DNA of 64,000 nt from Escherichia phage RB3, in the sequence record KM606994; one strand, written 5' to 3'. Positions 14,865 to 51,128 of this stretch are shown here, piece after piece. Both the position numbers and the translations under genes were made by a program. The notes below the pieces were generated by a model. The model worked only from the letters and a program-made list of their open reading frames with translations. It made no database searches and was not told the DNA's origin. Numbering within the stretch: the first letter of the stretch is position 1; every line of letters begins with the position of its first letter.

Positions 14865-15193
14865 TCACAAGATGTAGATGAACAGCTAGAATCACAAGAA
14901 CTTCCGCATGAATCACCTGCCCATACATGAACAGGGACATTTGTATCATATGAATCAGAACTAGACTGTGTATTAGATGATGTAGTAGGTACTGACCAGC
15001 GCCAAGGATTTTTATAATATTCTTGGGCTTCTTCATAAGTCATAGTAACTGCTTCTACTGTTCCATCTCCCATATAAACATACTCAACTACAGTTAAAGG
15101 AAGGTAGTCATTTGAAATAGGAACTACACCTTCTCCAGGAGTCGTAGAGAAAAAATCTGTAAAGAAACTTTTAAACCAATTAAAGATAAACAT
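14861..15193 (-). CDS. hypothetical protein with Cys/Ser-rich C-terminus (110 aa)
   Basis: ORF track; C-terminal [15 protein letters not shown]. Confidence 0.4.
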
Positions 15194-20422: not shown

Positions 20423-20785
20423 TTAAAAGAATTTAAATTTTTTCTTTGACCTTTTATTAAATGCATCTTGCAGTTGCATTGTAATACATTTTTCTACATG
20501 AGGAGCTAACTCAGCTTTTCTTTCTTGGTCAAGAACAGCAAAGTCCATTACAACCTTTCCATCAACCCAATCTAATTTTGTCACATACACAATGTGTGTA
20601 GAACCATCTTCTAGTTTAATGACAATCTCCTGGATAACATTTTCCATGGCAGATTTAATTATCTTAAGAGACTCGTTAAAAAGATGTTCTTTTCTTTCTT
20701 CTTCCCCCTCCGAAGAGGGGGATTCATCGATAATTTCTAGATCTAAGTCTAAATCATCTTTATTCATTAAATTCTTCCATATCAC
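20423..20785 (-). CDS. 40: gp40-like head assembly protein (120 aa)
   Basis: Position between uvsX and 41 as T4 gene 40; acidic N-terminus. Confidence 0.5.
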   Translation of the reverse strand: MIWKNLMNKDDLDLDLEIIDESPSSEGEEERKEHLFNESLKIIKSAMENVIQEIVIKLEDGSTHIVYVTKLDWVDGKVVMDFAVLDQERKAELAPHVEKCITMQLQDAFNKRSKKKFKFF

Positions 20786-21941
20786 TTAACTGTTCGAGGT
20801 CAGTTTCTAAATCAGCAGCTGATTTACTTTTACTTTCTGGGGATTTAAATTTTTCAACCTTTGAGTTAATCAATTCATCAACTTCAGCTTCAACAATTTC
20901 ATTACTATCAATAGCACCTAACTGATAAGCACGTTTAATAGCATCTCGGAATGGTTGATGCTTAAATAAAGGACCCCAGAATGTAGTGCAGTTAGTATCT
21001 TTTGCACGCCAAGATTTTTCTTCGCGAATCATCTCGCCGGTTTCTTCGTCAAGAAATTCACGAGCATACCAACCATTCTTAGGTTTTACTACAAATCCTA
21101 ATTCTAGAGCCATATCTAACAATCCAGAATAAGGATCGATACCACCGTCAAATTTAACATCAATAAAGAATTTACTTTTTTCTTTAACGGTACGAGATTT
21201 TTCTACATTTAGAACAAATTGATACCCCTGAAGATCAGAACCATCTTTAATCTGGCGTTTACCGATAATGAATACGGTATCAGCCGAATACATTACGCCT
21301 GTACCACCTGTCATCACGGTTTTACTAAACATTTCAATTGTTTCAATTGTATGGTTAACCGCAACACATGGAATATTTTTAATGCTAAAATAAGGAGTAA
21401 CAATACGGAATAATGACTTCAGTGATTTAGCACGAGTCATATCTGCCACAGATTTTTCATTCAAGGCATCTTCCGTTTCTTTCTTAGAAGCCATATTACC
21501 GATTGAGTCGATGAATACAATAACCTTTTCACCACGCTCAATAGCTTCAAGCTGGTTCACCATATCAATTTTCAGTTGTTCAACTGACTGAATTGGCGTA
21601 TGAATTACACGTTCCGGGTCAACTCCCATGGATCGCAAATAAGCTGGAGTAATACCAAATTCGCTATCATAGAATAGACAAACCGCGTCAGGATATTTGT
21701 TCAAATATGCCGCAACCATAGTCAAAGACATATTTGATTTAAAGTGTTTAGAAGGCCCTGCGAAAATAGTTAAACCAGACTGCATGCCGCCATCAATCGC
21801 ACCAGAAATAGCAATATTAAGCATTGGGATTTTTGTACGGATTACATCCTTTTCATTAAAGAATTTAGATGTAGTCAGTTCAGCAGTCATTTTAGAAGTG
21901 GAAGCTTTAATCAAACGGGATTTTAAATCTGCAATAGACAT
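20760..21941 (-). CDS. uvsX: UvsX recombinase (RecA-like, 393 aa)
   Basis: RecA-fold Walker A GPSKHFKS; near-identical to remembered T4 UvsX. Confidence 0.92.
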   Translation of the reverse strand: MSIADLKSRLIKASTSKMTAELTTSKFFNEKDVIRTKIPMLNIAISGAIDGGMQSGLTIFAGPSKHFKSNMSLTMVAAYLNKYPDAVCLFYDSEFGITPAYLRSMGVDPERVIHTPIQSVEQLKIDMVNQLEAIERGEKVIVFIDSIGNMASKKETEDALNEKSVADMTRAKSLKSLFRIVTPYFSIKNIPCVAVNHTIETIEMFSKTVMTGGTGVMYSADTVFIIGKRQIKDGSDLQGYQFVLNVEKSRTVKEKSKFFIDVKFDGGIDPYSGLLDMALELGFVVKPKNGWYAREFLDEETGEMIREEKSWRAKDTNCTTFWGPLFKHQPFRDAIKRAYQLGAIDSNEIVEAEVDELINSKVEKFKSPESKSKSAADLETDLEQLSDMEEFNE

Positions 21942-22018
21942 TCATTTTTTCCATAGGCATCATTATATTTTCCTCACTGGTTAAAGATAGAGTAATTATA
22001 ACACAATAAATTTAGGCA

Positions 22019-22861
22019 TTAATCAACTGCTATTGGATGAATAGCATTAAACTTATGAAATGCTTCTGATTTTTCTTTACGTGAAACACACATGCGAAGA
22101 ACCTTTAACGGCTCGTCTTCTTCACCCAACGATTTTCGTTTTTCAATATTCGATGTTTTCCAACGAGCTTGCTCTGGAAACTCTCTATTGATTTGCTCAA
22201 GCGCTCTATTATGTTTAGAATTACTACGAATTGAACTGCACCCGCCAGGAGCTTGTGCTTTTCCAGATACAACCAGATATTTGAACAAGGCCAAATGCGG
22301 ATAACCTTGATTAATTAAATTGAGAAATGCATACATATCTTCACATAAATCAATTTTTCCATACCCAATTTGTTCTGTTGTAAGTTTTCCGAGGTCATAC
22401 CATGTATTCGTGAATCCATATGAATTTTCACGATAATTACCCCAAGATGAAGTAATTTTAAAAATTGGTAGACGAGCATGACCATGATAATACCCGCAAT
22501 CCATGGCATCCTCAACATATTGAATCAATTCATAGAACTGTTCACGAGTTAATTGATTAATTTTATCTACACAACGACGATCATCTCTTTTTCGCATTGA
22601 ACTCATACGAATAGTAGTATCATCGTCAATCATCCAGATTCGTTGACCTGCATACATATCAGTAATTGCTTTACGAGTTCCAGCAATTCCGTTTACATCA
22701 TCAGGAATAGTTATAATTTTAGCTCTAGACCCATAGGCATCATAATAAGCTTTTTCTTCGTGTTCACGTACTACAATATGGGGTTCATAATCAGTCGGAA
22801 ACATATCAAGGGCAGAAACTGCCCCGACACGCTGATAACTTGGAATTACGAATTGAATCAT
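22019..22861 (-). CDS. GT-A-type glycosyltransferase at the beta-gt locus (280 aa from first ATG)
   Basis: DxD motif IWMIDDDTTI; sits between uvsX and 42 where T4 has beta-gt but is shorter and of a different fold. Confidence 0.5.
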   Translation of the reverse strand: MIQFVIPSYQRVGAVSALDMFPTDYEPHIVVREHEEKAYYDAYGSRAKIITIPDDVNGIAGTRKAITDMYAGQRIWMIDDDTTIRMSSMRKRDDRRCVDKINQLTREQFYELIQYVEDAMDCGYYHGHARLPIFKITSSWGNYRENSYGFTNTWYDLGKLTTEQIGYGKIDLCEDMYAFLNLINQGYPHLALFKYLVVSGKAQAPGGCSSIRSNSKHNRALEQINREFPEQARWKTSNIEKRKSLGEEDEPLKVLRMCVSRKEKSEAFHKFNAIHPIAVD

Positions 22862-23598
22862 TTCCACTCACCGTTATAATCTTTTTTCACAATATGAGTT
22901 TCGCCAGTATTCCACCAATGATCAACCAAGTAAAAATGACGAGAATATACATGAAGACTTCCAACATTCCATATAATAGAACCTGCTTTATACTGACGAG
23001 TTGAATCGCCTGCATTCAAATCAGATACTAATTTATCTAATACGTATTTTTGCCATGCATAATCATTACGGAATCCGAAGACCACGTCATTTGAGCGCAT
23101 GCTTACTACTGCATTGACTTTCTTATCACGAATCAGGTACTGTACTGTATTAGTACACATGAAATCTGACATGCCATCTTTATTGTAGTCAAATTGCATG
23201 GATGGACGAGTATAAATCATGATACCACGTCGAGAATCAGGATTTTGACCAAGTTCAGCTAAACACATATCATACTGGGCATAGTTATCTTCTGACCAAA
23301 TAGCCCAGCCATAATTCGAGTTAATTTCGCCTTTAGAAGATGCTACCTGCTGCCAAATCTTTGGTGTTTCACCTGGAATATCTTTAACAAACAGACTTTG
23401 AGACTTGTACCATTCAAGTTCACGCTGAATGTATTCATCATTAAGAGCGCCAAAAATAAAGGGTTCATCTGCTACAAATGATGCGCCAATAATTTCAATA
23501 GTTTTAACGCCAGTTTTATCAACTACGAAATCTTTTTCCTTTAATGCAGTTCCCAAATAAAAACGGATTTCTTCAACTGTCATAGAGTCATTAATCAT
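22858..23598 (-). CDS. 42: dCMP hydroxymethylase gp42 (246 aa)
   Basis: Thymidylate-synthase-like fold; length and sequence as T4 gp42. Confidence 0.9.
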   Translation of the reverse strand: MINDSMTVEEIRFYLGTALKEKDFVVDKTGVKTIEIIGASFVADEPFIFGALNDEYIQRELEWYKSQSLFVKDIPGETPKIWQQVASSKGEINSNYGWAIWSEDNYAQYDMCLAELGQNPDSRRGIMIYTRPSMQFDYNKDGMSDFMCTNTVQYLIRDKKVNAVVSMRSNDVVFGFRNDYAWQKYVLDKLVSDLNAGDSTRQYKAGSIIWNVGSLHVYSRHFYLVDHWWNTGETHIVKKDYNGEWK

Positions 23599-23751
23599 TT
23601 AAACCTCAATTGATGCATTCATATTTAAATTGTAACAGTAATAAACCCCACCCTATGATAAGAGTTGGAATCATAGCAGGAACTGTTACGCTATAGTATA
23701 TACTTATTATAACCATCAAGATTAAAAGCAACACTGCTATAATTTTGCTTT

Positions 23752-24003
23752 TCATTCTTTCTCTCTGATGATAATTACCTGATTTGGCTGTACAGACTTT
23801 TTAGTTTCACCTGCAATTGACCAAATAAATGTAATAAACCAACCAATAATTGACCAGTTAAACAGTAAAGACGTGAAAAAGATTCCTACTGTCGATTTTG
23901 ACCCACGCATCAAGGCGATAAACCATGGAAGCATGTATATAATAATAGCCAACACGCCTGAAACTAAAACCATAAAAATTGAACCTGCTACTAAAGTTTC
24001 CAT
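23752..24003 (-). CDS. imm: immunity protein Imm (83 aa)
   Basis: Two TM segments; length and sequence as T4 Imm. Confidence 0.75.
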   Translation of the reverse strand: METLVAGSIFMVLVSGVLAIIIYMLPWFIALMRGSKSTVGIFFTSLLFNWSIIGWFITFIWSIAGETKKSVQPNQVIIIREKE

Positions 24004-24010
24004 GTTTTCC

Positions 24011-24391
24011 TCACTTAGTCAAATTTTTTACACATGAATTATAAGAATTCACTACATACTCCATCGGAGCATTTTTACCTGTGCGCCATTGGTAATTATT
24101 AGCCCAATTTGCCCAAAGCACAGCGCAGTAGTTTTCAATTTTTTCTTCGCGTGTAATTACATCAGAATTACGATATGCTTGAGCAGATTCATCTGGACGA
24201 ATAGCTTCGTCAAAATTCGCCTGCATTTGTTCTACTGTTTGCTTTGGAGCTTCTTTATAACACTTGACATTAGGATTATAAAATTTGCTTGAACAGTTTA
24301 CAATTTTTCCTACATCAGACTGATTTACTACCGGTCCTTGAGCTACACAACCAGTAAGACCTAATGCAATAACCAAAATAGCGATTTTCAT
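24011..24391 (-). CDS. putative lipoprotein (126 aa from first ATG)
   Basis: Signal peptide MKIAILVIALGLTGC with lipobox; shared leader cassette upstream. Confidence 0.5.
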   Translation of the reverse strand: MKIAILVIALGLTGCVAQGPVVNQSDVGKIVNCSSKFYNPNVKCYKEAPKQTVEQMQANFDEAIRPDESAQAYRNSDVITREEKIENYCAVLWANWANNYQWRTGKNAPMEYVVNSYNSCVKNLTK

Positions 24392-24413
24392 TTCATTCTC
24401 CAAATCCGTATTA

Positions 24414-24458
24414 GTAGTTGATAGTTGTATAGTACCATGGAAGAACAGTCTTGTAAAC
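24414..24458 (-). promoter_or_regulatory. early promoter plus shared leader cassette
   Basis: gtagttgatagttgtatagtaccat then gtaaac at 24453-24458, followed by an A/T-rich UP-like tract. Confidence 0.5.
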
Positions 24459-24545
24459 AGTTTTGTGAAAATTTTTTAGGGAATTCTAAAGGTCCAGAAT
24501 CATCTGTTTTTCATAAGTATAGATTTATATTACTTGTATGAAAAA

Positions 24546-24561
24546 GGGACCCGGAGGTCCC
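24546..24561 (-). terminator. intrinsic terminator downstream of gene 43
   Basis: gggacc-cgga-ggtccc with A5 on plus strand (U5 on minus transcript). Confidence 0.6.
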
Positions 24562-24574
24562 TAGATTTATTCTA

Positions 24575-27271
24575 TCAGCCAAACAGGAAGTCTAACGAAG
24601 CTTTTTCTTCATAGTCCATACCAGCCGATTCACACATACCCGCAAGCGGTTTAACAAACGATTTTTGGAACAAAGTTGAGTAGTCAATCCAAGACAGTAC
24701 GTCAGAACGAATTTCCTTTGGAAGTTCTGTGCCCGACGGCCAAGCAATGCACTTGTCACCAAATGGATTTCCTTCGCGTAATGGAAGAACCATTACTTTA
24801 TTTCCATCCAAAATTGGAGCTACACCTAGACCACTAACAGCTCGACGATAAGTTAGCACACCACGAATATGGAACGGGCATTTAAATCCTGGCCAACCTT
24901 TATCATCATATTTCGCTATATCGTTCGCAGTTTTTACTTCAGCAATAACTTTATAGTCGAGTTGACGATATTCTTTCTCGAAGTTCTTGTAATATTCTTG
25001 GACAGACTCTTCACCTTCCTGAAGAATACGACGAATACTTTCTTCGAGAGCTTCTTGCACTGCCTTTGGTGTTGAACTCTGCTGAGTTTCCATACCCATG
25101 ATTTTTAGATGCGGTTCAGCAAATCGCTTATCTTCCATATCATAAACGTTCAGAGCATAACGCTTTTTCGCTTTCCAAAATCCGCCAACGCCCTTTGAAC
25201 CAAGTGGAGGGCAAGAAATAGCTTCACGGTCCATATGCATCAGATGCTCGCGGTTATTCATATAATCACATAACTCACGATATGCAACATCAATCATAGG
25301 TTCCATCTTTTTCTTACCAAACTGATTCATGAATTCAACTAAATCATTTTGTTCTTTAAAGCGGTCAAGACCTACTTTTTCAATTACTTTATCTACACAA
25401 ACATATACCGAATCAGTATCACCTGCTGCAATGAAATCTTCGCCATTAGTTCCGCATACTTTATTCAGATATTCATTAATTTTACGAGCAATCCACTGAA
25501 TACCAACTTGGCCGAAAATTGTGATAGCAGTAGCATTTCGCAAATCATAGTAACGAAAATGAATATTACCAAGAGCACCGTAAAGACTGTTAATAAGAAT
25601 TTTACGGTTCAGCTGATTTGTGTTAGCAAGTGTAGCTGCTTTTTCACATTCTTCAATCAAACTATTGAGAACAGATTCGGTGTAATTCGATAGTTCATTT
25701 AAGAAATCATCACTGAACTTAACATATCGTTCAACTTCAGGTTTAGTTGAACAAGACCCTGCGCCTTTCATAATAATCTTTTTAATAGCTTCGGCATTCA
25801 TTTCTTCAGCGAACATTTTCTTTTTCCAATCTTTACGCTGGAAAAATACTTTAGCGATTTCCTTTGGAATGATACCTTCTTGATGCTTATCATACATCCA
25901 TCCATTCGGAGAACAAGAATATTCATCACTCGGTTTAGGAGCTGTTCCTGCGATATATTCATGAATTGGATGAACTTTAAATTGTCCACGAATAGTCTCA
26001 GGACTAATGTTAACCTGGCGAATAATACTCGGATACAGAGACGTCAAGTCAAAACTCATAATGTATCGACGAGCAATTGGCTTAGGTTCAAATACAAATG
26101 CACCCGGAAAACTCTGTTTAACATGCGAACCTTGTTGAGGAATAACCTTATGTTCACCTTTCAATGAGTTAAAAATAATAGCATCCCAAGTTTTAATAGG
26201 ACTCATTACACCAGAAAAAGGCATTTTAGCGTAATAAGACATACTTAAAACTAGATCGATAAACCCGCGAATTTTATCAATTGCTTGAACTGATTCTACG
26301 TCAATGATGTTATAACTAATGTATCGTTGATGATTAGTCTCACGAAGTTTATTAATAGGACCATCATACGGTAATTTACCTTTTTTGGTTTCATGTTGAG
26401 CAACTGATTCCAAAGAGAATGACGGCAAATTAGTAAAAGCGAATTTCTTGTACAAATCTAAATAATCAAGAATAGATACGCCATCAATAGAATAAATTTC
26501 TTTGCTACCGTACATGTTTTGAATTAGTTTAGATTTTACTCGACCGATTGGAGAAAAGCGTTTCATACTGCGTTCACCGAGAACCATTTTAACGCGATTC
26601 ATGATATACGGAACGTCAAATCCCTCAATATTCCAACCGGTAAAAATAGCAGGTCGTTTCTGTTCCCAGAGATTGATATATTCCATGAGCATATCACGCT
26701 CATTATCAAATGGCATATAAATTACTCGGTCAAGAATTTCTTGAGGAACTTCATCGCCACCTTCACAGTCAAGCTTAGCAGCTAACTTTGCATCCCATTT
26801 TGATACTGAACCGTACATTGAATTCAAAAGGTCGAAAACATAAAAACGATCATCAATTGAATCGTAATGAGTGATAGCATCAATTTCATATTCAGCTTTC
26901 ATTGGGTCAGGAAATTTATCACCAGTAACCTCAATGTCACAGTTAGCTACACGAACAAATTTTCGGTCATAAACAATTTCTGAACCATATGTATCACTGA
27001 TATAAGCGAGTTTAAAATCGTTCATACCGAGAGCTTCGAGACCGATGTCTTCCATTCGCTTCATCCAATCTCGTGCATCTTTCATTGATGGAAATTTTTG
27101 AGGAGCGCAGTTTTTACCATAAATGTCTTTGTATTTTGACTCTTCCTTACAATGCCTAAACATAGTTGGAAGATATTCTACTTCACGAGTACGTTCCTTT
27201 CCGTTTTCATCAATATAACGTTCAACAATGTTATTTCCGACTGTTTCAATAGAGATATAAAATTCTTTCAT
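24575..27271 (-). CDS. 43: DNA polymerase gp43 (family B, 898 aa)
   Basis: Exonuclease and polymerase motifs (YGDTDS); length as T4 gp43. Confidence 0.95.
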   Translation of the reverse strand: MKEFYISIETVGNNIVERYIDENGKERTREVEYLPTMFRHCKEESKYKDIYGKNCAPQKFPSMKDARDWMKRMEDIGLEALGMNDFKLAYISDTYGSEIVYDRKFVRVANCDIEVTGDKFPDPMKAEYEIDAITHYDSIDDRFYVFDLLNSMYGSVSKWDAKLAAKLDCEGGDEVPQEILDRVIYMPFDNERDMLMEYINLWEQKRPAIFTGWNIEGFDVPYIMNRVKMVLGERSMKRFSPIGRVKSKLIQNMYGSKEIYSIDGVSILDYLDLYKKFAFTNLPSFSLESVAQHETKKGKLPYDGPINKLRETNHQRYISYNIIDVESVQAIDKIRGFIDLVLSMSYYAKMPFSGVMSPIKTWDAIIFNSLKGEHKVIPQQGSHVKQSFPGAFVFEPKPIARRYIMSFDLTSLYPSIIRQVNISPETIRGQFKVHPIHEYIAGTAPKPSDEYSCSPNGWMYDKHQEGIIPKEIAKVFFQRKDWKKKMFAEEMNAEAIKKIIMKGAGSCSTKPEVERYVKFSDDFLNELSNYTESVLNSLIEECEKAATLANTNQLNRKILINSLYGALGNIHFRYYDLRNATAITIFGQVGIQWIARKINEYLNKVCGTNGEDFIAAGDTDSVYVCVDKVIEKVGLDRFKEQNDLVEFMNQFGKKKMEPMIDVAYRELCDYMNNREHLMHMDREAISCPPLGSKGVGGFWKAKKRYALNVYDMEDKRFAEPHLKIMGMETQQSSTPKAVQEALEESIRRILQEGEESVQEYYKNFEKEYRQLDYKVIAEVKTANDIAKYDDKGWPGFKCPFHIRGVLTYRRAVSGLGVAPILDGNKVMVLPLREGNPFGDKCIAWPSGTELPKEIRSDVLSWIDYSTLFQKSFVKPLAGMCESAGMDYEEKASLDFLFG

Positions 27272-33986: not shown

Positions 33987-34004
33987 AAAGGGCCGAAGCC
34001 CTTT
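33987..34004 (-). other. GC hairpin with UUCG loop overlapping alpha-gt stop
   Basis: aaagggc-cgaa-gcccttt. Confidence 0.45.
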
Positions 34005-35205
34005 ATTTTGTAATAATGTCAAACTGTTCTTTAAAGCAGAAGCTTGAATCTTGATGCTGATACAAAAATTCATATGCTTTTTCTCGCTCACGGTCATAAA
34101 GAGCTCGGTCAGATGACAGTTCTTTAATACGCTCGAATGTTGATTCCATGTCATTTTCATCAAACCAAATGATACCGCTATCATGCGAGGTCAAAGGAGT
34201 ATTATCAACACGGAATTTTAAATTATCACCCGTTGATTTCCAGAAAACAGGAATTGTACCGCAAGCACCTAATTCAAGATGAGTATATTCGAGTGAGCGT
34301 TGTAGATATTTTTTATCCAACTTACTCAACTGATAACCAAAACCGGATTTACTCATACGTTCAAGCATTTCGCTATTTACATAACGGTCAAGAATTTGCG
34401 TTGGCAAATTAGGAGCAATTTTAATTTGGTCTACTTGATGAAGACGATAATACTCGTATGGAATTCCTTTTTCTTTAATGGGAATGAACGCTGGAGAACG
34501 TTCCAGACCTTCCATAATAGTACTTAGTCCTGCAGGTTTAAGATGTTTTTCATGAAAATCAAACATCTGATAAAAACCTTTCCACGTAGTCGTACGACCA
34601 ATCCAACGGTTAATATTCATGTTAATTTCAGAAACATCTTTCCAGTAGGTTGACCGAACCTTCGCAATATCCATAGGAGGCTGAAAGTTATATACGGTCG
34701 GTGCTTCTTCAATATCATCAAACAGAGAAACTGTTTCAGGATACCATTCTTTCATCAGAACTTTATTAAAATCGCCATTATCAGAATGACTAAAAATAAC
34801 ATCAGCTCGACGAACAGTTTCTTCTAATCCCAAATTTCGACGCAAAGAAAGAGAAGAATGGTCATGTTGATAAACTACAACACGAACCGAAGGTTTAATG
34901 TTATCAATAATTTTTTTATAGTTATTAATTGTGTCTTCTTCGACTGAAGTAGCAGGAACTGAATTGATAATTAGAATATCACAATCATTTACCAGCTTAA
35001 GTGTTTTATCGTATTCTTTTGCCAATAAAACCGGAATTGAAAATGATTTATAATCATGCGCGCAGTTACGAGTAAATGATTTATCTTTAGCATAAACCAA
35101 AGTTACTTCATGACCATTTTTAATAAACCAATCACGCTGCTCAAGAGAAAATTTAGTTACACCGCAACCTTCAAGACCTCGAGCCATAAAAATACATACT
35201 TTCAT
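34003..35205 (-). CDS. a-gt: DNA alpha-glucosyltransferase (400 aa)
   Basis: Length and sequence as T4 alpha-gt (GT-B fold). Confidence 0.88.
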   Translation of the reverse strand: MKVCIFMARGLEGCGVTKFSLEQRDWFIKNGHEVTLVYAKDKSFTRNCAHDYKSFSIPVLLAKEYDKTLKLVNDCDILIINSVPATSVEEDTINNYKKIIDNIKPSVRVVVYQHDHSSLSLRRNLGLEETVRRADVIFSHSDNGDFNKVLMKEWYPETVSLFDDIEEAPTVYNFQPPMDIAKVRSTYWKDVSEINMNINRWIGRTTTWKGFYQMFDFHEKHLKPAGLSTIMEGLERSPAFIPIKEKGIPYEYYRLHQVDQIKIAPNLPTQILDRYVNSEMLERMSKSGFGYQLSKLDKKYLQRSLEYTHLELGACGTIPVFWKSTGDNLKFRVDNTPLTSHDSGIIWFDENDMESTFERIKELSSDRALYDREREKAYEFLYQHQDSSFCFKEQFDIITK

Positions 35206-35229
35206 TTAATATCCTCATTGTTTTGGTTT

Positions 35230-35253
35230 ATTTTACCAAAAATTTATAAAGCA
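35230..35253 (-). promoter_or_regulatory. MotA-box middle promoter upstream of alpha-gt
   Basis: Minus strand TGCTTTA, 11 nt, TAAAAT. Confidence 0.35.
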
Positions 35254-35256
35254 ATA

Positions 35257-35274
35257 TAGGAGCCGAAGCTCCTA
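35257..35274 (-). other. GC hairpin with UUCG loop
   Basis: taggagc-cgaa-gctccta. Confidence 0.4.
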
Positions 35275-39248: not shown

Positions 39249-39719
39249 TTAATCATGTTTCCACACCCCATCGGTATTTGACCAAAGTCGCTGATTATCT
39301 GATCCTCGCCACAGCTTTTTAGTCGGAAGATTTTTCTCATACTTCCCATCAATAATAACATCAACATATTTAAGCATTTCTAGTTGTTTAATATCTTCAA
39401 ACTTATATCCTGTCCACAACCAAATGCTTTTATTGGGATAAAGATTTTTTACTGTTTGAACAATGCAATGAATAACATCTCGATTGTCAGGATAGAGAGG
39501 GTCTCCTCCGGTTATAGTCAATCCTTCTATATAATCATTATTCAAACATTCAATTAATTGTTCTAGTGTTTCACCAGTGAATGGAATACCATTTCTAGCA
39601 TTCCATGTTGATTTATTATAACACCCTTCGCATTTATGCAAACAACCTGTAACGAAAAGAACGACCCTGCATCCAGGGCCATTCACGAAGCAGCACGGGT
39701 ATATTCTGTCATAATTCAT
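39249..39719 (-). CDS. nrdG: anaerobic ribonucleotide reductase activase NrdG (radical SAM, 156 aa from first ATG)
   Basis: CxxxCxxC cluster (CLHKCEGC); track start is TTG, first ATG gives the T4 NrdG length. Confidence 0.85.
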   Translation of the reverse strand: MNYDRIYPCCFVNGPGCRVVLFVTGCLHKCEGCYNKSTWNARNGIPFTGETLEQLIECLNNDYIEGLTITGGDPLYPDNRDVIHCIVQTVKNLYPNKSIWLWTGYKFEDIKQLEMLKYVDVIIDGKYEKNLPTKKLWRGSDNQRLWSNTDGVWKHD

Positions 39720-40546
39720 AATAATATCCAATTTTTCCAAGCTTCATCAGTAGAATTACAGCGTTTTAGTATAAGATGTCTAGAAACTTTTATGGCATTT
39801 GAGCACTTTTTAATTGAATCATATTTAATACCGTCAACTGAAACGGTTTTGCTAGTTGGAGAAATTTTTCCATACATTGGATTTTTTGAACCAACTTGAA
39901 GTCCTTTTAAAGCTTTTGAAAGCTTTTGTCTAGATTCCAATGACATGGGAGAATTCTTTTTACCTTCAATAATTCGCTTGCGATGAAGTTCGCGTTCTTC
40001 TTCACTCAAAGAATTGTAATATTTTTTAACACCGTTTGATATAGATAATTTATCTTTCTCAGACCGCTCTCCAGCTAATTTACTTCTAACATCTTTTCGC
40101 TTCATAGCTATGCTTACGGCTTTATTTAAATTTGCTTGATGCTCTGGCGTACGTTTATATTTCTTTAAAGCACGTGAAATAGCTATTTTAGTTTCTTCTG
40201 TTCTCTTTTTACCTTTATTTGCTAAACTATTTTTGCGGCGATGTTCAAGTGTCTGTTCATAGGCAGTTCCACCTTTTCCACCAGGTTTAATATTATATGT
40301 ATTTTCTTTTAGACAATACTCTTCGGTTACGAGTTCAGCTTCTTTATCATACATTTGTTTTTCATTATCAAAAACATGTAAAATTTCTTTATTAAAATTT
40401 TTTCTACCATATTTTAATAAAGCGGCACGAATCAATGTTCCTGACCCCATATAACCGTCATTTATGTTATCGGTGCTATGCGCACCGATATATTCCTTTG
40501 AATTAATTATATTTGTTATTTTATAAATTATATAATACCTATGCAT
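39716..40546 (-). CDS. free-standing GIY-YIG homing endonuclease (276 aa)
   Basis: N-terminal GIY-YIG motif (YYIIYKITN...EYIGAHST), basic DNA-binding C-terminal region; lies between nrdG and nrdD. Confidence 0.8.
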   Translation of the reverse strand: MHRYYIIYKITNIINSKEYIGAHSTDNINDGYMGSGTLIRAALLKYGRKNFNKEILHVFDNEKQMYDKEAELVTEEYCLKENTYNIKPGGKGGTAYEQTLEHRRKNSLANKGKKRTEETKIAISRALKKYKRTPEHQANLNKAVSIAMKRKDVRSKLAGERSEKDKLSISNGVKKYYNSLSEEERELHRKRIIEGKKNSPMSLESRQKLSKALKGLQVGSKNPMYGKISPTSKTVSVDGIKYDSIKKCSNAIKVSRHLILKRCNSTDEAWKNWILL

Positions 40547-50401: not shown

Positions 50402-51128
50402 TTAGGATTCTTCTAAATGTCTTTTCTGAAAAGTTGATACCATACTACGATACGGTTCATTTGGATACCCGTGTTTTATAGCTTCCTTTGTAAATTTTCT
50501 CCATCCATATTTAGTTTTTTTCCAAAGCTCGAATAATTCATCTTCATATTGCCATATAGTTAAATGAGAACGCTTTGCAGCTTTAATTCCATTAATATGC
50601 TTTTCTTTTACTACAGGATTGCTTAGTTTCTTTTTAATAATATTACTAACTTTTCTAACAAAAACTGGGTCCTTATATCGTTGCGAAGTTTTTATTGAAG
50701 TGTTTAATTTAGCTTCCGGCGTGGATGTAACCTCTTTCATCTTTTTCTTCATATGCTGTATATGATTAGGATTTTTCCATAAATTTATAGAATGCTTTTT
50801 GCATTTTATCCTAGTTTCATCTGCAACCTTTCCTCCTTCACCCCCCCCCCCCGTATGACAGGTTAACACAGTTTTTTCCATATTTCAATTTACCTGCCAT
50901 GATATATAATATTTCAGCTTGTACCATTTTATCATAATTATCAAAAACTTCTAAAACCGTTTTTGATAATATGTGGTCATTTGACACTTTTACACGTTCT
51001 ATATAATTTCCACTACCAACATACGAATCATTGATGTTATTAGTTATATGTCGACCATAATAGTATTTCTTAATACCTGTCTTTAAATTTAATATTTCAG
51101 TTTTATAGATAGTAAAATATTTTTTCAT
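50402..51128 (-). pseudogene. GIY-YIG homing endonuclease gene split in two frames at a homopolymer tract
   Basis: ORF 50838-51128 carries the GIY-YIG motif and ends ...SYGGGG; ORF 50402-50881 starts ...TGGGGEGG in another frame; one base fewer in the tract would fuse them into about 240 aa. Confidence 0.6.
50841..50852. repeat. C12 homopolymer (G12 on coding strand)
   Basis: Twelve consecutive C at the frame junction of the split endonuclease gene. Confidence 0.9.

Follow-up and report, generated by a model that had tools for sequence, protein, structure and literature searches.

In the window, a stretch of 64,000 nucleotides from Escherichia phage RB3, the interval between uvsX and gene 42 holds an open reading frame on the minus strand, which almost certainly encodes a beta-glucosyl-HMC-alpha-glucosyltransferase of the T2/T6 type (ba-gt, also named ggt or TAGT; EC 2.4.1.28). 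An earlier note on this DNA had placed a 280-aa protein between uvsX and gene 42 without stating its strand, and the reading frame is indeed located there. According to the ORF listing, its longest form extends from 22019 to 22867 with a GTG start (282 aa), while the ATG at 22861 yields a protein that begins with MIQFVIPSYQR and carries the sequence IWMIDDDTTI at residues 75-84. The relevant features are as follows.

20760..21941, minus strand: uvsX, the downstream flank of the ba-gt cassette (ORF listing and RB5 annotation)
21930..22875, no strand: segment without DNA homology to T4 (blastn), in place of T4 23556..25496 (segA and b-gt)
22019..22861, minus strand: coding sequence assigned to ba-gt (ggt/TAGT, PF20691), 280 aa; ATG at 22861, stop codon at 22019..22021
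22337..22339, minus strand: codon of D175, which belongs to the ED motif LCEDMY and does not vary in the alignment of 91 sequences
22619..22627, minus strand: codons of D79-D80-D81 (DxD motif), read from the sequence
22829..22831, minus strand: R11 codon (CGT); the Arg is invariant across the family and replaced by His in T2 alone
22858..22861, minus strand: ATGA, in which the ATG of ba-gt overlaps the TGA that ends gene 42, with GGTGAG in front of it; sequence ...AACGGTGAGTGGAAATGATTC...
22858..23598, minus strand: gene 42, dCMP hydroxymethylase (synthesis of the hmC precursor), upstream of ba-gt
34003..35205, minus strand: a-gt, alpha-glucosyltransferase, 400 aa (annotated as RB5_059)

The ATGA overlap suggests that ba-gt is translationally coupled to gene 42. 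Between gene 42 and imm, a 49-aa hydrophobic ORF is found (23606..23755, minus strand), which is annotated as 42.1 in RB5 and has a counterpart in EH2; the T4 and T6 records have no annotated CDS at this position.

Between positions 15000 and 30000, the DNA of the window is 100% identical to that of RB5, RB6 and RB10 and practically the same as that of RB7 and RB9, all five of which belong to the species Tequatrovirus RB3. Hereby, the reading frame is 100% identical to RB5_042 (AIT73051.1), which carries the annotation 'b-gt: beta-glucosyl-HMC-alpha-glucosyl-transferase'. The identification as such is thus already known, as the gene is annotated in RB5 and hundreds of T4-like phages possess it; the T2 and T6 genes were reportedly cloned and sequenced in 1993. 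In a paper from 2018, RB5 is tabulated with homologues of a-gt and ba-gt and with no b-gt homologue in its genome (PMC6024577, Table 1), and the T2 and T6 enzymes are cited there as UniProt Q06717 and Q06718 (PMC6024577).

Using tblastn, we found a homologue of ba-gt in 687 phage records, with 80% or more of its length covered in 683, so that the frame represents a real, conserved gene and no chance ORF. About 470 of the records, from Tequatroviruses of Escherichia, Shigella, Yersinia and Salmonella, are at least 90% identical to ba-gt, and about 200, from Klebsiella and Enterobacter phages, are 60-80% identical. In Pfam, the TET-associated glycosyltransferase family (TAGT, PF20691) is the sole significant match, with 38.3 bits compared to a gathering score of 27.5, and residues 3-207 of the protein cover the profile end to end (positions 2-205 of 205). 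Among the PHROG profiles the protein matches phrog_842, beta-glucosyl-HMC-alpha-glucosyltransferase, with E=7e-89. The earlier note had proposed an enzyme of the T2/T6 type and a direct comparison with the two. This comparison, together with the PHROG match and the common locus, bears the proposal out: over 280 aa the window protein is 98.9% identical to the T2 enzyme (3 differences: R11H, I101V, P251S) and 98.2% identical to that of the T6 record MH550421.1 (5 differences, including a stop at codon 10). With 99.6% identity the EH2 protein is closer still, the one difference (I101V) being conservative and located in a non-conserved column. The order gene 42, ba-gt, uvsX is common to T2, T6, RB5 and EH2.

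The stop in the T6 record concerns the record rather than the window. In MH550421.1, codon 10 of ba-gt reads TAG (amber) in place of CAG, and the annotated CDS is shortened to 261 aa starting from Met20, which would lose the first beta-strand (MIQFVIPSY). The amber codon is unique to this record; in the T6 records AP018814.1 and NC_054907.1, a single base of an 81-nt stretch is different. It is thus either a mutation specific to one stock or a sequencing error. We also considered whether a published study (PMC13216743) had taken the N-terminally truncated form as its T6 protein from RefSeq; this is probably not the case, given that the amber is confined to MH550421.1 and the RefSeq record is NC_054907.1.

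For a deep alignment of the family, 335 relatives were collected by an exhaustive search of the representatives of a library clustered at 50%, where a word-indexed search had yielded 11 proteins. An alignment was built from 90 of the relatives and the query (91 sequences), most of the relatives being only 20-30% identical to the query. R11, D80, D175 and G207 are invariant in this alignment, and I6, P7, R63, D79, D81, G186, G206, R212 and P229 are conserved in at least 90% of the sequences; all invariant residues are intact in the window protein. The DxD motif that the earlier note had pointed out thus lies at a conserved site, with D80 invariant and D79 and D81 conserved to at least 90%. In searches of the PDB, neither the sequence alone nor the profile of 91 sequences yielded a meaningful match (best matches: IGF2BP3 and BUD31, at E ~0.4-1), and the fold was therefore addressed through a predicted structure. 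Based on the 91-sequence alignment, AlphaFold2 returned a model with a mean pLDDT of 93.7 and a pTM of 0.92, which consists of a single GT-A domain and a C-terminal extension. Its best Foldseek matches in the PDB are the GT-A enzymes TarS, WrtF, K4CP, TarP, CgT, RmlT and KfiA (E 4e-6 to 1e-4, probability 1.00, TM ~0.45-0.53), followed by sugar-nucleotidyltransferases of related fold; no GT-B enzyme occurs among the 50 PDB matches listed. Among viral models, TM values range between 0.6 and 0.93; a Klebsiella phage ba-gt (TM 0.93) and proteins with a TAGT domain match best. Model, structural matches and the conserved DDD together agree with the GT-A type that had been suggested from the motif.

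Certain functions may be assigned to the conserved residues. Drawing on the enzymology of GT-A proteins, D79-D81 most likely bind a divalent metal ion and the diphosphate of UDP. D175 is most likely the catalytic base, as a candidate for this role in an inverting GT-A transfer. This latter role is drawn by analogy with the GT2 enzymes; TarS, TarP and K4CP are inverting beta-glycosyltransferases. For R11, we infer a contribution to donor binding. A GT-A fold and a sister relation to GT2 were reported independently for the T6 protein (PMC13216743); fold and synteny with T4 beta-gt were published in 2026.

An alpha-gt elsewhere in the window, as had been noted before, is found as a full-length gene at 34003..35205; its product is 91% identical to T4 a-gt over 400 aa (tblastn) and shows 2 differences from the a-gt of EH2. 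With this set of genes, gene 42 and the replication machinery would place 5-hydroxymethylcytosine (hmC) into the phage DNA. To this base a-gt would add a first glucose from UDP-glucose in alpha linkage, thereby generating alpha-glucosyl-hmC as acceptor. By analogy with the relatives for which this step has been shown, ba-gt would then attach a second glucose to the first in beta-1,6 linkage, which yields gentiobiosyl-hmC, and a phage without a T4-type beta-gt should contain no beta-glucosyl-hmC in its DNA. Synthesis of hmC via gp42, its incorporation at replication and the consecutive action of alpha-gt and ba-gt (beta-1,6) to give gentiobiosyl-hmC represent the established scheme (PMC6024577, PMC13216743). 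Deletion of ba-gt in T6 leaves alpha-glucosyl-hmC only and increases the sensitivity to Brig1 (PMC11078745); in the DNA of T6 delta-g-gt, about 75% alpha-glucosyl-5hmC was found (bioRxiv 10.64898/2026.02.25.707755).

The presence of the ba-gt gene alone does not reveal how far the DNA is diglucosylated, because gentiobiosyl-hmC accounts for about 5% in T2 and about 72% in T6 although the two enzymes are ~98% identical. For EH2, analysis of the DNA by HPLC/MS gave about one third hmC and about two thirds alpha-gentiobiosyl-hmC; alpha-glucosyl-hmC was scarce and beta-glucosyl-hmC absent (PMC13390438). An intermediate pattern of 1:2:2 has been described for the Durham phages EL, BGP and Geo (PMC13390438). 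Since ba-gt and a-gt of the window are nearly identical to those of EH2 (1 and 2 substitutions, respectively) and R11 is kept, we predict with moderate confidence an EH2/T6-like DNA with about two thirds gentiobiosyl-hmC and about one third bare hmC, and not the 5% of T2. A glycosylation pattern unlike that of T4, as implied in the earlier note, is hence to be expected, given that the near-identical EH2 contains gentiobiosyl-hmC and lacks the beta-glucosyl form (PMC13390438).

The prediction would fail if ba-gt were weakly active in the window phage, resulting in a T2-like pattern with ~70% alpha-glucosyl-hmC and ~5% gentiobiosyl-hmC, which we regard as unlikely. Although the a-gt of the window is of the T2 type (99.8% identical to T2, 91% to both T6 and T4), the same applies to EH2, whose a-gt shows 1 difference from T2 and whose DNA is nevertheless about two-thirds diglucosylated (PMC13390438). 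Likewise, by number of differences ba-gt is slightly nearer to T2 (3) than to T6 (5), but it shares R11 and P251 with EH2 and T6 and lacks the T2-specific H11 and S251. The intermediate patterns of some relatives (PMC13390438) would be compatible with a weak enzyme, whereas the intact set of invariant residues argues against it.

The preferred EH2/T6-like reading draws in part on residue 11, where the T2 enzyme has a His and all 91 aligned family members have an Arg. Among the 685 records with the gene, the exact T2 N-terminus occurs only in seven T2 records, which stem from several laboratories, and in SV76. When T2 and EH2 are compared across ba-gt, 200 nt of DNA upstream of it and the spacer that leads to uvsX, 12 nucleotide differences appear, none of them in the ribosome-binding region; in the protein these changes amount to R11H and P251S only, and the two a-gt proteins are one residue apart. 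R11H is a plausible cause of the weak diglucosylation in T2 because these few differences are otherwise all that separates T2 from EH2 in the two enzymes. We tentatively suggest that this single substitution could account for the contrast between T2 (~5%) and T6 (~72%), while considering it somewhat less probable than the opposite. The literature we searched, which lies outside the 1993 cloning paper, contains no statement that R11H causes the weak diglucosylation of T2. If this were the case, the window phage, having kept R11, would diglucosylate heavily even with an a-gt of the T2 type, and its DNA would largely escape defences directed against alpha-glucosyl-hmC such as Brig1.

Very improbable, in our view, is a TAGT-family enzyme of different specificity at this locus, i.e. 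one that uses another sugar or another acceptor, or that modifies hmC directly. The family is diverse, as the 20-30% identity of most relatives illustrates, and in many phages a TAGT stands alone, with neither alpha-gt nor beta-gt present (PMC13216743). However, the window protein is separated from that of EH2 by one conservative substitution in a non-conserved column and from those of T2 and T6 by 3 and 5 changes, and deletion of the T6 orthologue costs the second glucose only (PMC11078745).

As the earlier note had stated, T4 encodes a beta-gt of 351 aa at this map position; it is accompanied there by segA, and the two genes make up the T4 uvsX-42 interval. In blastn, homology between the window and T4 stops at 21929, in the 5' end of uvsX, and returns at 22876, in the 3' end of gene 42, which amounts to a clean cassette difference of 946 bp in the window and 1941 bp in T4. 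The adjoining block 22876..24500, which contains gene 42 sequence, is 94.9% identical to T4 DNA. A truncated or diverged T4-type beta-glucosyltransferase of GT-B fold, which would beta-glucosylate bare hmC and for which the position between uvsX and gene 42 is the one point in favour, can practically be dismissed, as BLASTP of the window protein with T4 b-gt returns noise (E=3.4), the Pfam search (E<=1) contains no beta-gt domain (PF09198), the model matches GT-A and not GT-B enzymes, the T4 homology breaks exactly at the edges of the cassette, and EH2, with a 99.6% identical protein, is without beta-glucosyl-hmC (PMC13390438). The two findings that the earlier note had named as fatal to its proposal, a truncated T4 beta-gt or a protein unrelated to glycosyltransferases, are both ruled out by these data and by the PF20691 match. 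Moreover, no T4-type beta-gt is present anywhere in the 64,000-nt window, the best match having E=1.5.

The base composition differs between the two cassettes. While ba-gt has a GC content of 36.4%, close to its neighbours (36.1-36.3%), the values are 30.9% for T4 b-gt and 30.3% for T4 segA. The lower GC suggests that the beta-gt/segA cassette of T4 is the later arrival at the locus, which agrees with the published view that the T4 arrangement is the unusual one (PMC13216743).

Differences in homing endonucleases are also seen at a-gt. In T4, the HNH homing endonuclease gene mobB adjoins a-gt, whereas the corresponding stretch of the window (35206..35271) leads directly from a-gt to a-gt.2 with mobB absent, as in T6. 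Thus, both T4 glucosyltransferase genes are flanked by homing endonucleases (segA, mobB) that the window phage is without at these sites. A GIY-YIG homing-endonuclease ORF is located between nrdG and nrdD (39716..40546, minus strand) and comprises 276 aa when read from its first ATG. At the N-terminus it shares 49% identity with T4 SegA; the RB5 annotation, segD, uses a start further downstream. Another short SegA-like match is seen at ~50988..51068.

The second glucose alters how the phage DNA is perceived by defence systems. In vitro, T6 DNA resists the Brig1 glycosylase owing to its gentiobiosyl-hmC, and deletion of ba-gt raises the sensitivity of T6 (PMC11078745). The glucosyltransferase set of a T4-like phage is therefore a guide to how sensitive it will be to type IV restriction, DNA glycosylases and CRISPR. 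Within Tequatrovirus, the combination of alpha-gt and TAGT prevails, of which the window phage is a textbook case, while the pairing of alpha-gt and beta-gt as in T4 is a rare exception found in 6/753 genomes (PMC13216743). What may be new is the T2-only substitution R11H at an otherwise invariant residue.

In comparison to known systems, RB5_042 and the identical genes of RB6, RB7, RB9 and RB10 are the same gene as the window ba-gt, with zero difference. The T2 and T6 genes share with it the length of 280 aa, the position between gene 42 and uvsX, the presence of alpha-gt and the absence of beta-gt; they are set apart by only 3-5 substitutions, with R11 kept in the window but not in T2 and the codon-10 amber confined to MH550421.1. 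Within the PF20691 TAGT family, the window protein is tied to the gp42-type hmC pathway and alpha-gt, and not to a TET/JBP dioxygenase, and it extends beyond the domain by an extra ~70 residues at the C-terminus. Bacterial GT2-type GT-A enzymes (TarS, 5tze; TarP, 6h4m; K4CP, 2z86) have the GT-A fold and the DxD motif in common with ba-gt. At 9-14% identity and TM ~0.45-0.5, however, they are invisible to sequence and profile searches of the PDB, and their acceptor is teichoic acid or a polysaccharide in contrast to a sugar on DNA. T4 b-gt (PF09198; structure PDB 1JG7, as cited in PMC13216743) shares with ba-gt the uvsX-42 interval, the UDP-glucose donor, the beta linkage formed and hmC DNA as substrate class. 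Yet the two show no sequence similarity and differ in fold (GT-B compared to GT-A), length (351 compared to 280 aa), GC content, the company of the homing endonuclease segA in T4, and acceptor, which is bare hmC for the T4 enzyme and alpha-glucosyl-hmC for ba-gt.
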